From NCBI GenBank assembly GCA_017610385.1, contig JAFCCC010000002.1, positions 94,570-158,569 on the forward strand: a stretch of DNA of 64,000 nucleotides, read 5' to 3'. Below the pieces are notes generated by a model that worked only from the letters and a program-made list of their open reading frames with translations, ran no database searches and was not told the DNA's origin. Both the position numbers and the translations under genes were made by a program. Shown piece by piece: positions 27,289-54,218 of this stretch. Source of the DNA: Candidatus Nanohalarchaeota archaeon (GTDB lineage Archaea > Nanohalarchaeota > Nanosalinia > Nanosalinales > JAFCCC01). Positions within the stretch are counted from its first letter, which is position 1. Every line of letters starts with the position of its first letter.

Positions 27289-27441
27289 TTTTCGGAAACT
27301 CAAATTGGATATAACAATTTATATACGTAATTTTATATCTAATTTAAGTGTATAAAACTATATGGGCGAACTTGAAACGTTGAATTTGGAATTCTTTTAT
27401 CTATCTGATCTTTAGAATGCTGGGAGACGAGATTCAAACGC

Positions 27442-27545
27442 AACTGCGGTCAGTTGCATCAACACGTAAAACTCTTACGAGTTTTCCTAACTTGTGAACA
27501 AAATTCACAAGCACAGCGGATTACTGCGTAACTTACTTCACTTTT
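27442..27545 (-). repeat. W element copy 1 (three-hairpin, about 104 nt), inverted relative to copy 2
   Basis: The 59-nt core 27458-27516 is the reverse complement of 35309-35367 with one mismatch. The flanks are homologous but diverged. Confidence 0.85.
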
Positions 27546-27572
27546 CGCTTAAGCCTTTTGTTAAAAAGGCTT
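27541..27572 (-). repeat. Z hairpin unit (aagcctttt..aaaaggctt + aagcgaaaag), downstream of tRNA-Leu
   Basis: The reverse complement matches 46626-46657 at 30 of 32 positions. Both differences fall in the loop. Confidence 0.85.
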
Positions 27573-27576
27573 ATTT

Positions 27577-27659
27577 TGCGAGGGACGAGATTTGAACTCG
27601 CGGACTCCTACGAGACTAGGCCCTCAACCTAGCGCCTTTGACCACTTGGCTACCCCCGC
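27577..27659 (-). tRNA. tRNA-Leu (anticodon GAG), class II, no intron
   Basis: Hand-folded. Acceptor is GCGGGGG/CCCTCGC and the D arm is GCC-AAGTGGTCAAA-GGC. The anticodon stem CTAGG/CCTAG carries loop TTGAGGG. There is a long variable arm, the T arm is GCGAG-TTCAAAT-CTCGT, and the discriminator is A. Confidence 0.9.
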
Positions 27660-27724
27660 AACTGAAACGCCAGCTGGTACCAACAGCGAATTATTAATAT
27701 AACTCATTTTCATTTTCAGTTTAA

Positions 27725-27755
27725 TTTTCGCTTAAACCTTTTACTGAAAAGGTTT
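27725..27755 (-). repeat. Z hairpin unit, upstream of tRNA-Leu
   Basis: The reverse complement aaaccttttcagtaaaaggtttaagcgaaaa matches 46565-46595 at 28 of 31 positions. One difference is a compensatory G-C to A-T stem change. Confidence 0.8.
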
Positions 27756-27842
27756 AGAATAAGAAGGAATATTAATCTTTCTTTATTGCTTTTTTCGTGT
27801 TTTATACAAATTTATAATAACTCTATTAGCCAATTTTTGAGT

Positions 27843-33319: not shown

Positions 33320-34222
33320 TCACTCAGTTACAAATGTGCTTTTTATTCTTCCAATTTTATAAGCACCAATTAAGATTAAAAAGGATCCCAAAAGAGGTAC
33401 TATTCCAAGAGGTTCTTTGAAAATCAAAATTCCCAGAATTAAAGAAATTACTGGCGCAAGCAATAAAAAACTGGTTGCTTTTGAAATATCAATTAATTTT
33501 ATGCTCCAATACCAGCAGAAAACATATGCAAATAAGAGTGCTGTGGATATTATTATTTTGATTATTTGGGCTGAGTTTAATTGCAATAATAAATTAAATT
33601 TCCCAAAAATACCTATGACTCCGAAAAGCACTATTGCCCCGATAAACATTCTTGAAAAAGAAATTATCCAATTGCTCTCCCCTTTGTTCATTGCTTTTTT
33701 AGATATTGTAATTTCAATTGCCCACAAAAATGTGGCGCCCAATATCAGCAAATCACCTAATTGTGGATTTGAAAAAAATTCTGTTGGATTAATTTTTGTA
33801 AACACAATAAAAATAATTCCGATAAACATTGCAAGTAAATATGGCAAATATTTTTTCACTTTTTCTTTTAAGAAGAAATAAGCTAGTCCAAATGTAAAAA
33901 AGGGTAAAGTTTTATGCAAAAATGCCGCTCGCCCACCAGTTGTTAATTTTAGACCGCTGAAGAATAATAGAAAGGCTAAACCACCACCAATTATTCCTAT
34001 AGCCAATAAATACTTCCATGAAACGCTGTTAAATCCTTTAAAACTAAATTTGTTACTGTAAAAACATATAATAAAAAAAACAAGACCGATAAACAGCGCT
34101 CGAATTGCTGTGAATAAAAATGGATCTATTGTTGCTACAAAGAACTTATTTGCAATAATCGAAACACCGCTTATTATTGCAGTTAAAATTGCAAGCAGAC
34201 TTCCAAGAGTTTCGTTATTCAT
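33320..34222 (-). CDS. EamA/DMT-family transporter
   Basis: Roughly 10 TM segments in two EamA-like halves. Its start overlaps the upstream gene's stop. Confidence 0.75.
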   Translation of the reverse strand: MNNETLGSLLAILTAIISGVSIIANKFFVATIDPFLFTAIRALFIGLVFFIICFYSNKFSFKGFNSVSWKYLLAIGIIGGGLAFLLFFSGLKLTTGGRAAFLHKTLPFFTFGLAYFFLKEKVKKYLPYLLAMFIGIIFIVFTKINPTEFFSNPQLGDLLILGATFLWAIEITISKKAMNKGESNWIISFSRMFIGAIVLFGVIGIFGKFNLLLQLNSAQIIKIIISTALLFAYVFCWYWSIKLIDISKATSFLLLAPVISLILGILIFKEPLGIVPLLGSFLILIGAYKIGRIKSTFVTE

Positions 34223-34764
34223 AACGGTATATTATCATAGGTCATTAAAATATGTTTTAATTTGGAATAATTTTTCTCAGAAATTTTTTCTATTGCATTA
34301 TCATAGTGAATCGTAATCAAATCATTGACTTTAAATTCATCTAAAAATTCTGATTTCACCTTCCTTTCACCAAAAAGTGTTTTAACAGTTAATTCAGTAG
34401 AGTTGGTGGCTATAATTTTTGCAGGCAAAACTAAACAGCGTTTTACATTAAGATCTCCAAAATCTGCGTTTCTATCTAAAACCACTGCTGCGTGCATATC
34501 CCAAAAATAGGTGTGTAGGATTTCTTTGTCGATTTTTTCTTTTCCTTGTTTTTTTGCTAGAACAAGAAGATTTCCTGTTGCAAATGGCCAGATTTCCTGT
34601 AAATCTTTTTCAATTTTCTCTTTTTTAGTTACTTTGTCTTCTAATTCATCGAGAAAGTTTTGGGTTATGTTCCCTCGCTGAACCAAAACACACCCACAAG
34701 GAACCGCATATCTAAGAAATAATTGCTCGGTTTCAGAATCTGTAAATTTAATCATCTGAATCAC
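34219..34764 (-). CDS. HypC-like domain protein with a 109-aa N-terminal extension
   Basis: The C-terminal CLVLPAKII...NDLITIHYDNAIEKISEKNY parallels HypC (MCxxxPGxI...VLVHVGFA...I.E.EA). The N-terminal region is unrecognised. It is translationally coupled to hypC and to the DMT gene. Confidence 0.55.
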   Translation of the reverse strand: MIQMIKFTDSETEQLFLRYAVPCGCVLVQRGNITQNFLDELEDKVTKKEKIEKDLQEIWPFATGNLLVLAKKQGKEKIDKEILHTYFWDMHAAVVLDRNADFGDLNVKRCLVLPAKIIATNSTELTVKTLFGERKVKSEFLDEFKVNDLITIHYDNAIEKISEKNYSKLKHILMTYDNIPL

Positions 34765-35160: not shown

Positions 35161-35280
35161 GAACACTTAAAGATGGTTTTGGTTTCATCTCAAGCACATA
35201 TTTAAAAACTTATTTGAAAAAGGAAGTATAGTAAGTTGCTCGCAATTACGCTTTTTAGATAGAAAGTATAATTTAAACTA

Positions 35281-35383
35281 AAAAGTGAAGTCTGTTGTGT
35301 ATAACCGACTGTGCTTGTGAATTTTGTTCACAAGGTAGGAAAACTCGTAAGAGTTTTACGTGTTGATACAACTAACTGTAGTT
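35281..35383 (+). repeat. W element copy 2, ending exactly at tRNA-Tyr nucleotide 1
   Basis: See copy 1. The hairpins lie at 35314-35334, 35338-35359 (GTAA loop) and 35370-35383. Confidence 0.85.
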
Positions 35384-35562
35384 TCCCGACTTAACTCAAT
35401 GGTAGAGTGTCCGGCTGTAGACTTTGGACGCCGCAAACCTTCAAAGGTTTGTACCGGGATGTTCCCGGTTCGAATTAGCCCTTTGTACAGGCAAGCGTAC
35501 AAAAGCGTTAGCAGAAAGTACGCTTCCGCAAATGAATGGTTACGAAAATCCGGGAGTCGGGA
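35384..35562 (+). tRNA. tRNA-Tyr (anticodon GUA) with two introns (anticodon loop 37/38 and T-loop)
   Basis: Hand-folded. Acceptor is CCCGACT/AGTCGGG and the D arm is ACTC-AATGGTA-GAGT. The anticodon stem is TCCGG/CCGGG with loop CTGTAG|A. The T stem is CCCGG/CCGGG with TTCGAAT. Intron 1 is about 35420-35451 and intron 2 about 35475-35549. Confidence 0.85.
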
Positions 35563-35577
35563 TTTCTTTTTATTTTT
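35563..35577 (+). terminator. oligo-T tract after tRNA-Tyr
   Basis: The sequence tttctttttattttt lies directly 3' of the discriminator base. This matches the archaeal oligo-T termination signal type. Confidence 0.4.
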
Positions 35578-35638
35578 GTAAAGGTTCTGTAGTGTACTCA
35601 GAACATAGAGATATATTATTTTATGAGAATGGTATTTT

Positions 35639-36010
35639 ATGAAAAGAGAGAATACGAGTTATCAACAACAACTAGGGGCTCTATTACGTAAAGATTTTGA
35701 AATATATGTTGAAAAGTATATTAGAGAAGATGTTGCAATACGAAACATATACACTGAACTTGATAAATCAAGTGTAGCACCACCAGAAAGGCTAGTAAGA
35801 TCGTACATAAACTCTTTATTTACTGAGGGCATATACGGACGTTGTGGCATACTGAATGAAAAGAAAGAGAGAGAAAGACTAACACGGTTGGCAATTTTCG
35901 GGAGACTTGTGAATCTTAGTTCTGAAACACGCCAACGCCTTGAAGAAGAAGTTACTAAAAAAGGTGCATGGGCTCTAGAAGAATTTAGGCGTTTATTTGA
36001 CGCTGACTAA
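35639..36010 (+). CDS. hypothetical protein
   Basis: 123-aa ORF; no motif recognised. It lies in a visibly less AT-rich stretch. Confidence 0.45.
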   Translation: MKRENTSYQQQLGALLRKDFEIYVEKYIREDVAIRNIYTELDKSSVAPPERLVRSYINSLFTEGIYGRCGILNEKKERERLTRLAIFGRLVNLSSETRQRLEEEVTKKGAWALEEFRRLFDAD

Positions 36011-46464: not shown

Positions 46465-46505
46465 TTCCTTTAGTTTTTAATACAAAACATTTAAATACGT
46501 TAAAT

Positions 46506-46830
46506 TCCGAGCGTTCGGATAAGCTTTTTGCACAAAAGTAAAGGCGCAAAAATCTTAAGCAAATAAGCCTTTTTAGTAAAAGGCTTAAGCGAAAATTAAA
46601 CAGCGAGTTACGAGTATAACTCACTAAGCCTTTTTAGTAAAAGGCTTAAGCGAAAAGAAAATGAGCTTTTCAGATAAAAGCTCACGGAAACTTGTTAAGT
46701 TTCCTAAATCGGAAATTAATGCATTTCCAATTCAAGCAAAATAAGCGTTTTGCACAAAAGTAAACGTGCAAAAATCTTAAGCAAAAATACGTTACCACCA
46801 AGCGTTTTTAAAGAACGGTTTAATCCAAAT
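46506..46830. repeat. array C of back-to-back hairpin modules
   Basis: At least nine consecutive stem-loops. They include the 31-nt Z unit twice (46565-46595, 46626-46656), block Y (46663-46746) and block X (46743-46798). Confidence 0.85.
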
Positions 46831-47539: not shown

Positions 47540-47653
47540 GTTGGCGGTCACAGCGAAGGGGCCACACCCGTACCCATTTCGAACACGGAAGTTAAGCCCT
47601 TCAGCGATTCGAACAGTACTTTCTTCGGAAGGGAAAATCGAGACGCTGCCAGC
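47540..47653 (+). rRNA. rrf: 5S ribosomal RNA
   Basis: The sequence GGCGGTCACAGCGAAGGGGCCACACCCGTACCCATTTCGAACACGGAAGTTAAGCCCTTCAGCG...GTACT... matches the conserved 5S core. The termini pair as helix I. The ends are accurate to within a few nt. Confidence 0.9.
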
Positions 47654-47667
47654 TTATTTTTACTTTT
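47654..47667 (+). terminator. T-rich tract after 5S rRNA
   Basis: The sequence ttatttttactttt lies immediately 3' of helix I. Confidence 0.35.
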
Positions 47668-48221: not shown

Positions 48222-48432
48222 AAGCCTTTTTAGCGAATAAGCTTTTTGCACAAAAGTAAACGTGCAAAAATCTTAACCAAAAATACGTTACCACTGAGCT
48301 TTTCAGATAAAAGCTCACGGAAACTTGTTAAGTTTCCTAAATCGGAAATTAATGCATTTCCAATTCAAGCAAAATAAGCCGTTTAATAAAGGCTTAAGCG
48401 AATAAGCTTTTCAAATAAAGGCTTAAGCAAAA
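48222..48432. repeat. array D of hairpin modules upstream of tRNA-Asp
   Basis: Contains a truncated Z unit (48222-48233), block X (48239-48294), block Y (48296-48379) and two degenerate Z-like hairpins (about 48375-48432). Confidence 0.85.
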
Positions 48433-48473
48433 TAAAAACAAAAATCCTAAACCCAAAATTAAAAATAGATGAT

Positions 48474-48608
48474 GCCTCGGTAGTGTAGTGAAGTTTATGT
48501 CTTTTTGACAAACTCTATAGGCCCATCATACACGCCTGTCAATCCGCAAAAGAAGGAGCTTTGTGGAACAGATCGCGTGTGACACGGGTTCGACTCCCGT
48601 TCGAGGCG
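48474..48608 (+). tRNA. tRNA-Asp (anticodon GUC) with two introns (D-loop and anticodon loop 37/38)
   Basis: Hand-folded. Acceptor is GCCTCGG/TCGAGGC. The D region GTGT-AGTG[30-nt intron]GCCCATCAT matches the archaeal tRNA-Asp D-loop. The anticodon stem is CACGC/GCGTG with CTGTCA[32-nt intron]C. The T arm is ACGGG-TTCGACT-CCCGT. Confidence 0.85.
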
Positions 48609-54054: not shown

Positions 54055-54218
54055 GGGCTCGTAGCTCAGTTGGTAGAGCACCAGGCTTTTAACATGTTTT
54101 AAAAGCTCTGAGGTCAATTAGACCTGTGATTGGGAGTTACCTGGGTGTCGCGGGAAGTTTAAAAGTCAGATAACTATCGTTGGCTTTAAACTCGCGAATT
54201 CGAGCCCCGTCGGGCCCA
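54055..54218 (+). tRNA. tRNA-Lys (anticodon UUU) with two introns (anticodon loop 37/38 and T-arm 53/54)
   Basis: Hand-folded. Acceptor is GGGCTCG/CGGGCCC and the D arm is GCTC-AGTTGGTA-GAGC. The anticodon stem is CCAGG/CCTGG with loop CTTTTA|A. The T stem is GCGGG/CCCGT with TTCGAGC. Intron 1 is about 54092-54138 and intron 2 about 54155-54198. Confidence 0.85.

Follow-up and report, generated by a model that had tools for sequence, protein, structure and literature searches.

A DPANN tRNA-Tyr(GUA) gene interrupted by an anticodon-loop intron and a T-loop intron

The window analysed here, a single stretch of 64,000 nucleotides, contains at 35385-35562 (plus strand) an archaeal-type tRNA-Tyr(GUA) gene interrupted by two introns, as found by reading the sequence and by running ARAGORN on spliced versions of it. 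One intron occupies the canonical position 37/38 and the other lies inside the T-loop, an arrangement that the first-pass annotation of this DNA had proposed and that ARAGORN confirmed on the spliced sequences. The gene, its exon-intron boundaries and the geometry of the motifs around the introns are direct observations. Judged from the sequence, it is very likely a functional DPANN tRNA-Tyr(GUA) gene, the two introns of which would be removed by protein-mediated splicing at bulge-helix-bulge motifs.

The gene and its mature product

In its native form, the segment 35384-35562 yielded no gene with ARAGORN and none with the Rfam tRNA model. Deletion of both 35421-35452 and 35475-35548 produced a 72-nt canonical cloverleaf that ARAGORN called as tRNA-Tyr(gta). 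When the T-loop insert alone was deleted, ARAGORN with the -i option reported a tRNA-Tyr with a 32-nt intron at 37-38, located at 35421-35452 and with the sequence actttggacgccgcaaaccttcaaaggtttgt; because the program prints exactly these positions, the boundaries of the first intron are fixed independently. Deletion of the first intron alone gave no ARAGORN call. The sequence of 35384-35562 was as first described and both introns were rightly recognized, and their limits needed small corrections. The tRNA starts at C35385 rather than at 35384, T35384 being position -1; the 37/38 intron, previously put at 35420-35451, is the one delimited by ARAGORN; and the T-loop intron, previously given as 75 nt at 35475-35549, is 74 nt long and is placed by its motif at 35475-35548.

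Three exons make up the gene. Exon 1 (35385-35420, plus strand), delimited by ARAGORN and the sequence, comprises the 5' acceptor strand CCCGACU, U8 and A9, the D-arm, the 5' strand of the anticodon stem, and C32, U33, G34, U35, A36 and G37. Exon 2 (35453-35474, plus strand), supported by ARAGORN and by a register check, begins with A38 and continues through the 3' strand of the anticodon stem, the variable loop AUGUU and the 5' T-stem strand CCCGG to U54, U55, C56, G57, A58 and A59. Exon 3 (35549-35562, plus strand), again from ARAGORN and the sequence, supplies U60, the 3' T-stem strand CCGGG, the 3' acceptor strand AGUCGGG and A73. Joined together, they read CCCGACU UA ACUC AAUGGUA GAGU G UCCGG CUGUAGA CCGGG AUGUU CCCGG UUCGAAU CCGGG AGUCGGG A. 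The spliced product retains U8, A14, G18G19, A21, U33, G37, G46, the A15-U48 and G53-C61 pairs and the T-loop UUCGAAU. Its ends are C1-G72 (C35385 with G35561) and the discriminator A73 (A35562), its variable loop has five nucleotides (AUGUU), and CCA is not encoded in the gene. The C1-G72 pair, A73 and a short variable loop are typical of archaeal and eukaryotic tRNA-Tyr, while the bacterial type has a long variable arm. Compared with the DPANN tRNA-Tyr genes of three metagenome contigs (L004, L016 and L017), the spliced sequence was identical at 54-57 of the 72 positions, and the gene of L017 has no intron.

The locus is base-for-base the same in two further independent assemblies, JGI contig L001 and contig L104, and an assembly artefact is thereby excluded. 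Since L104 is a strain-level contig identical across the whole tRNA-Tyr locus, it gave no covariation support for the structure. More distant relatives were sought in three ways. The exact pattern of the D-arm and anticodon loop had no match in a scan of one genome per species, and with a relaxed version of it the metagenome contigs yielded DPANN tRNA-Tyr genes that are all distant and lack the introns of this gene. A homolog search for syntenic relatives with the neighbouring 372-aa protein found, besides the query, a single protein of 49% identity, which is encoded on a 1.3-kb contig. The alignment with L001 also showed a difference nearby: 68 nt at 34340-34407, inside a HypC-like ORF (34219-34764, minus strand), are missing from this otherwise 99.97%-identical contig, in which the HypC-like gene is called as two ORFs. 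Either the population varies at this point or the two assemblies differ.

In the public gene call, a 72-aa hypothetical ORF with a TTG start extends over the tRNA-Tyr at 35424-35642 (plus strand; 1649-1867 of L001). It had no homologs or domains and merely reads through the tRNA, and the call is almost certainly spurious. Because this ORF was called over the locus, the tRNA-Tyr was not recognized in that annotation. The gene is thus a hidden essential gene that standard tRNA finders miss. Disrupted tRNA genes make small archaeal genomes seem deficient in tRNAs, as has been noted for DPANN (PMC5829648).

Splicing motifs of the two introns

The T-loop intron (35475-35548, plus strand; 74 nt) is located at position 59/60 and has a strict hBHBh' motif, as determined by constrained and free folds, a register check and a motif scan. 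The outer helix h is the T-stem itself (CCCGG/CCGGG). The central helix H has four base pairs, formed by UUCG (35469-35472, U54-G57) and by CGAA at the 3' end of the intron (35543-35546). Two bulges of three nucleotides, both AAU (35473-35475 and 35547-35549), flank it, and the inner helix h' pairs UAGCC (35476-35480) with GGUUA (35538-35542). Folded without constraints, the T-arm plus the intron adopts the strict bulge-helix-bulge as its minimum-energy structure (-31.5 kcal/mol, z = -4.5 against shuffles), and the nine pairs of H and h' are in the exact register that restores a 7-nt T-loop. A cut between the second and third bases of the bulges gives position 59/60. The first-pass annotation had called this junction ambiguous because of a repeated aat, and the ambiguity is real but harmless: as both bulges are AAU, the positions from 57/58 to 60/61 are equivalent at the sequence level and every symmetric cut yields UUCGAAU. 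Before removal of the intron, the T-loop would be unable to form because U54-G57 pair with the CGAA of the intron. The rest of the intron folds into a long rod, at the tip of which is an 8-bp hairpin (35493-35525, plus strand; AAGCGUAC, 17 nt, GUACGCUU). The stem and the loop length of this hairpin had been reported correctly, with its position given as 35492-35524; in the fold the arms lie at 35493-35500 and 35518-35525.

The presence of a motif is in itself uninformative in such AT-rich DNA. The plus strand of the window contains 326 bulge-helix-bulge shapes, compared with about 230 per strand in shuffled sequences. Because chance motifs are common, our assignment depends mainly on the register and on the surrounding tRNA and not on the motif alone. 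When motifs were removed automatically from all intergenic regions of the window and the products were submitted to ARAGORN, no further hidden tRNAs were found, a procedure to which relaxed motifs are invisible. A reading of the inserts as group I or group II introns was rejected because they are far too short.

The anticodon-loop intron (35421-35452, plus strand; 32 nt), at the canonical position 37/38, was examined by ARAGORN -i, a register check, folding energies and pair probabilities. Its flanking helices are in register: h is UCCGG/CCGGG (5 bp), and h' pairs CUUUGGA (35422-35428) with UUCAAAG (35440-35446) over 7 bp. The 5' bulge consists of A36, G37 and A, as expected for 37/38. The central helix, in which C32-U35 would face GUUU, has two pairs only, G34-U and U35-G. 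The in-register conformer with these two G-U pairs reached -3.4 kcal/mol and the best fold -13.3 kcal/mol, a deficit of about 10 kcal/mol, and by the pair probabilities h' has a competitor of roughly equal probability, a hairpin formed by G24-U43 of the anticodon arm segment. Alternative registers at 36/37 and 38/39 were rejected for worse pairing and non-canonical loops. Thus, of the two junctions that had been singled out for a bulge-helix-bulge check, the one in the T-loop has the motif in its strict form; at 37/38 the flanking helices agree with it, the central helix is reduced to two G-U pairs, and on these folding models the motif appears to be relaxed at best. Other DPANN tRNA-Tyr genes with 37/38 introns likewise have an imperfect central helix, with three of the four pairs and a mismatch at U33.

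The near-absence of the central helix in the first intron is the sole mildly unusual point of this gene. One reading, which we regard as rather unlikely, is that both cut sites of this intron lie in a symmetric 7x7 internal loop and that the endonuclease, if splicing is accurate, recognizes a substrate that fits neither the strict nor the relaxed forms accepted so far. By analogy with eukaryotic enzymes, such recognition might measure from the mature tRNA body. If true, this would be a new recognition mode for the archaeal splicing endonuclease.

Neighbouring introns and intergenic hairpins

Two other tRNA genes of the window have two introns each. One is the tRNA-Asp(GUC) gene (48474-48608, plus strand). 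Its D-loop intron (48491-48520, plus strand; 30 nt) has a relaxed HBh' motif (GUAG/CUAU and AGUUU/AAACU), and its 37/38 intron (48542-48573, plus strand; 32 nt) has a motif that is strict when drawn by hand (CUGU/ACAG and UCCGC/GUGGA). The tRNA-Lys(UUU) gene (54055-54218, plus strand) has a 47-nt intron at 37/38 (54092-54138, plus strand) and a 44-nt intron in the T-arm at 53/54 (54155-54198, plus strand), the latter with an HBh' motif (CGCG/CGCG and AGUUUAAA/UUUAAACU). Because these two genes carry relaxed HBh' introns in the D-loop and at 53/54, the organism must splice non-canonical introns.

This bears on whether the tRNA-Tyr locus could be a disabled pseudogene, broken by two insertions, with the cell relying on another tRNA-Tyr copy. 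The first intron does lack a proper central helix, the public gene call sets its 72-aa ORF over the locus, and our view is limited to 64 kb of the genome, so that a second, intronless tRNA-Tyr could lie elsewhere. However, all conserved tRNA positions are intact once the inserts are removed, and the perfect splicing motif of the T-loop insert, in its exact register, is not expected of random insertions. The nearby tRNA-Asp and tRNA-Lys genes have the same build, and the ORF is without supporting homologs or domains. In addition, tRNA genes are generally single-copy in small DPANN genomes, which counts against a spare copy. We therefore consider a pseudogene very unlikely and retain the reading of an intact tRNA-Tyr gene, the transcript of which would be spliced.

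The six introns of the window were compared with each other in 15 pairwise comparisons. The best result was a 12-nt match, TCCGCAAA[T/A]GAA, between the T-loop intron of tRNA-Tyr and the 37/38 intron of tRNA-Asp; its uncorrected p of 0.01 is not significant over 15 comparisons. There were no near-identical intron families among the six, and they neither show nor exclude a spread of introns between sites. The heptamer CCGCAAA, which we noticed post hoc, occurs in three of the six introns, namely both tRNA-Tyr introns (35431-35437 and 35526-35532) and the 37/38 intron of tRNA-Asp (48544-48550), all on the plus strand, yet only six times in the window when both strands are counted. This is suggestive of a motif common to the introns or of the remnant of a common origin.

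A further proposal is that the 74-nt T-loop intron remains in the cell after excision, perhaps in circular form, and has a function of its own as a small RNA, for instance as a guide or by binding protein. It is long for an archaeal tRNA intron and forms a stable rod with an 8-bp, GC-containing tip; CCGCAAA, which is present in half of the introns but only six times in the 128 kb of both strands, would also fit. Some archaeal tRNA introns contain C/D guide RNAs, and others form stable circles (PMC4090602), and this precedent counts in favour of the proposal. The sequence of the intron speaks against it. Neither tRNA-Tyr intron contains CUGA, and the best C-box-like heptamer, AUGAAUG in the T-loop intron, has three mismatches. 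The hallmarks of C/D guide RNAs are a C box (RUGAUGA) and a D box (CUGA) at the intron ends. Since the boxes are absent, the C/D-box and H/ACA readings of the T-loop intron were rejected. Rfam gave no match to it, the best hit being SNORA36 with 19 bits and an E of 0.5, which is noise. Comparable 59/60 introns of other DPANN loci (62-105 nt) are wholly different in sequence, and there are no conserved relatives in which constraint could be tested. A functional role of the excised intron is accordingly improbable.

The region directly upstream of the gene is also structured. A module of about 100 nt with three hairpins (35281-35383, plus strand), identified by alignment and with a fold z of -3.8, abuts the 5' end of tRNA-Tyr. 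An alignment showed a copy, about 90% identical, at 27443-27544 on the minus strand, downstream of tRNA-Leu. The wider duplication covers about 140 nt (35240-35383, plus strand, and 27443-27582, minus strand), of which the core 100 nt are about 90% identical. The duplicated segment has the hairpins CTTGTGAA/TTCACAAG and AAAACTC/GAGTTTT and the run ACGTGTTGAT, and its third hairpin displays one compensatory change, from A-T to G-C. The copy on the tRNA-Tyr side retains CTCGCAA, the last bases of tRNA-Leu. No Rfam family matched the segment, and a scan of viral contigs for the module found no matches. It is probably a 5' leader or an inter-tRNA spacer.

Directly after the copy on the tRNA-Leu side is the sequence GCGTTTGAATCTCGTCTCCCAGCA (27419-27442, minus strand). 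It resembles a T-loop, the 3' strands of a T-stem and of an acceptor stem, and a discriminator, with 18 of its 24 positions identical to the 3' end of tRNA-Leu. No 5' partner for this fragment was found in the window and its junction has no clean motif, and for these reasons a split or permuted tRNA was rejected. It is probably a decayed tRNA 3' end, left over either from a downstream tRNA that has been lost or from an integration site.

Several intergenic regions of the window hold arrays of perfect-hairpin modules, located at 46500-46810, at 48236-48440 and, on both sides of tRNA-Leu, at 27537-27573 and 27720-27757. The arrays adjoin genes of stable RNAs, namely tRNA-Leu, the 5S rRNA (47540-47654) and tRNA-Asp. 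Their commonest unit, the X module, is TAAGCCTTTT-N4-AAAAGGCTTA followed by AGCGAAAA; other modules are TGAGCTTTT..AAAAGCTCA, GGAAACTT..AAGTTTCC, GGAAAT..ATTTCC and TTTTGCAC..GTGCAAAA. A 90-nt array block at 46662-46751 is 98% identical to 48295-48384. None of the modules belongs to an Rfam family.

The first-pass annotation placed the hairpin of the T-loop intron in the same family as these modules and suggested that the arrays may be substrates or relics of the machinery that splices or mobilizes tRNA introns. At the base of the stem, the intron hairpin does have AAGC...GCTT in common with the X modules, and such a start is infrequent, at roughly 0.5-1% per hairpin: among about 200 perfect hairpins of at least 7 bp in the window, one outside the arrays and the intron starts with AAGC. 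The position of the arrays next to tRNA-Leu, 5S and tRNA-Asp points the same way. However, these four outer bases are all that the intron hairpin and the X module have in common. The rest of the stem differs (GUAC in the intron and CUUUU in the module), the loop is 17 nt in the intron and 4 nt in the module, and the intron is without the trailing AGCGAAAA. Because several module classes and several intron hairpins are available for matching, a 4-base coincidence is to be expected.

Wider sequence comparisons gave nothing above chance, and with alignment of the introns and modules of the window the similarity vanished. Smith-Waterman alignment of each intron to both strands of the remaining window gave scores within the shuffle distribution, with p = 0.78 for the T-loop intron (31 of 40 shuffles scored at least as well). 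The introns and arrays had no more 5-, 6- and 7-mers in common than random genome windows. An nhmmer profile of the X modules, built from five module copies and run with --max so that the filters were off, recovered every module copy with E values from 1e-11 to 1e-4 and nothing within 35421-35548, which includes both tRNA-Tyr introns, at E <= 100. A scan of viral contigs for the hairpin arms returned six unrelated chance palindromes. In addition, the modules form perfect, bulge-free hairpins that close on 4-nt loops, and hence they are not bulge-helix-bulge substrates of the endonuclease. The evidence does not support a tie of the arrays to the tRNA introns or to their splicing machinery, and we consider a common family most improbable.

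Proposed processing and related genes in DPANN

The precursor of this tRNA-Tyr would be transcribed from a start probably set by an AT-rich box near 35263-35278, would include a structured leader of about 80 nt, and would end in the T-rich tract TTTCTTTTTATTTTT (35563-35577, plus strand), which lies directly 3' of the gene and is a likely archaeal transcription stop. Archaeal transcription terminates at oligo-T. The ends would then be trimmed by RNase P and a 3' nuclease, with CCA added. EndA, the tRNA splicing endonuclease, would cut both 3-nt bulges of each motif, after which a ligase of the RtcB type would join the three exons and the introns may be circularized. The first intron would require a broad-specificity endonuclease. 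Enzymes of this kind have been described for several DPANN and TACK lineages. The limits of transcription, the enzymes, the splicing itself and the circular products are inferred from the sequence and from known archaeal pathways. Neither a splicing endonuclease nor an RtcB ligase was found among the 50 ORFs of the window scanned with Pfam and NCBIfam.

The host has a window G+C content of 33%. Among the proteins encoded in the window are archaeal RNA polymerase subunits, RpoB being split, as well as DnaK/DnaJ/GrpE, an oxoacid:ferredoxin oxidoreductase and a NiFe hydrogenase. No species-representative genome exceeds 58% identity to its RpoB', the best matches of which are in Aenigmatarchaeota, Nanoarchaeota and Woesearchaeota, so that the host belongs to a poorly sampled DPANN lineage.

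A targeted scan of 786 kb found ten further tRNA genes with strict 59/60 introns in seven other DPANN loci, which come from Woesearchaeota, Nanohaloarchaea, Nanoarchaeia and one unassigned metagenome contig. In these loci (L044, L049, L051, L066, L077, L079 and L009), tRNA-Asp and tRNA-Lys genes with strict 59/60 introns of 29-105 nt are situated in the 3-kb flank upstream of rpoB'; in the present window, the two tRNA genes are also upstream of rpoB' (60687), at a distance of about 6-12 kb. Like the T-loop intron of tRNA-Tyr, the introns of these tRNA-Asp and tRNA-Lys genes combine the T-stem, a UUCR/YGAA central helix, two 3-nt bulges and an h' of 3-10 bp, and the exon resumes at U60. In contrast, the sequences of these 29-105-nt introns are unrelated to each other and to the tRNA-Tyr intron, and the tRNAs differ, none being tRNA-Tyr. 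The gene of L077 also has an insert in the anticodon arm, presumably a second intron. Only one further DPANN tRNA-Tyr, that of L013, has an intron in the T-arm, and when read by eye this intron appears to be at 53/54.

The closest described case is ARMAN-2 (Candidatus Micrarchaeum acidiphilum), in which pre-tRNA-Cys(GCA) has a 59/60 intron and pre-tRNA-Pro(GGG) has introns at 53/54 and 59/60 (Fujishima et al. 2011, PMC3239211), and the 59/60 intron was cleaved in vitro (PMC3239211). Both systems have a DPANN host, a 59/60 T-loop intron whose bulge-helix-bulge motif is formed with the T-stem and T-loop, genes with multiple introns, and genes that are missed by standard tRNA finders. They differ in that the isoacceptor here is Tyr, the 59/60 intron is 74 nt long compared with 13 nt in the tRNA-Cys of ARMAN-2, the second intron is at 37/38 and not at 53/54, and the 59/60 motif is strict, whereas that of the ARMAN-2 tRNA-Cys is a relaxed hBH. 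Endonucleases of DPANN with an L3 loop have been linked to disrupted tRNA genes (PMC5829648).

Multi-intron tRNA genes and intron transposition are also known in Thermoproteales (Sugahara et al. 2007, 2008; Fujishima et al. 2010; reviewed in PMC4033280 and PMC4090602). As in this window, their genes have several protein-spliced introns (two here, two or three in Thermoproteales) at canonical and non-canonical sites, with strict motifs beside relaxed ones and a dependence on a broad-specificity endonuclease. Unlike the host here, the hosts are crenarchaeal and GC-rich, and near-identical introns in unrelated tRNAs are the evidence for transposition, whereas no such families exist among the six introns of the window.

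The two-intron tRNA-Tyr gene therefore belongs to a known kind that is common in DPANN. It opens no new question; a bridge between arrays and introns would have been interesting but is unsupported. What the finding adds is the tRNA-Tyr of a deep, poorly sampled DPANN lineage to the genes with 59/60 T-loop introns and, together with the two-intron tRNA-Asp and tRNA-Lys genes nearby, it points to the dependence of this organism on a broad-specificity splicing endonuclease.
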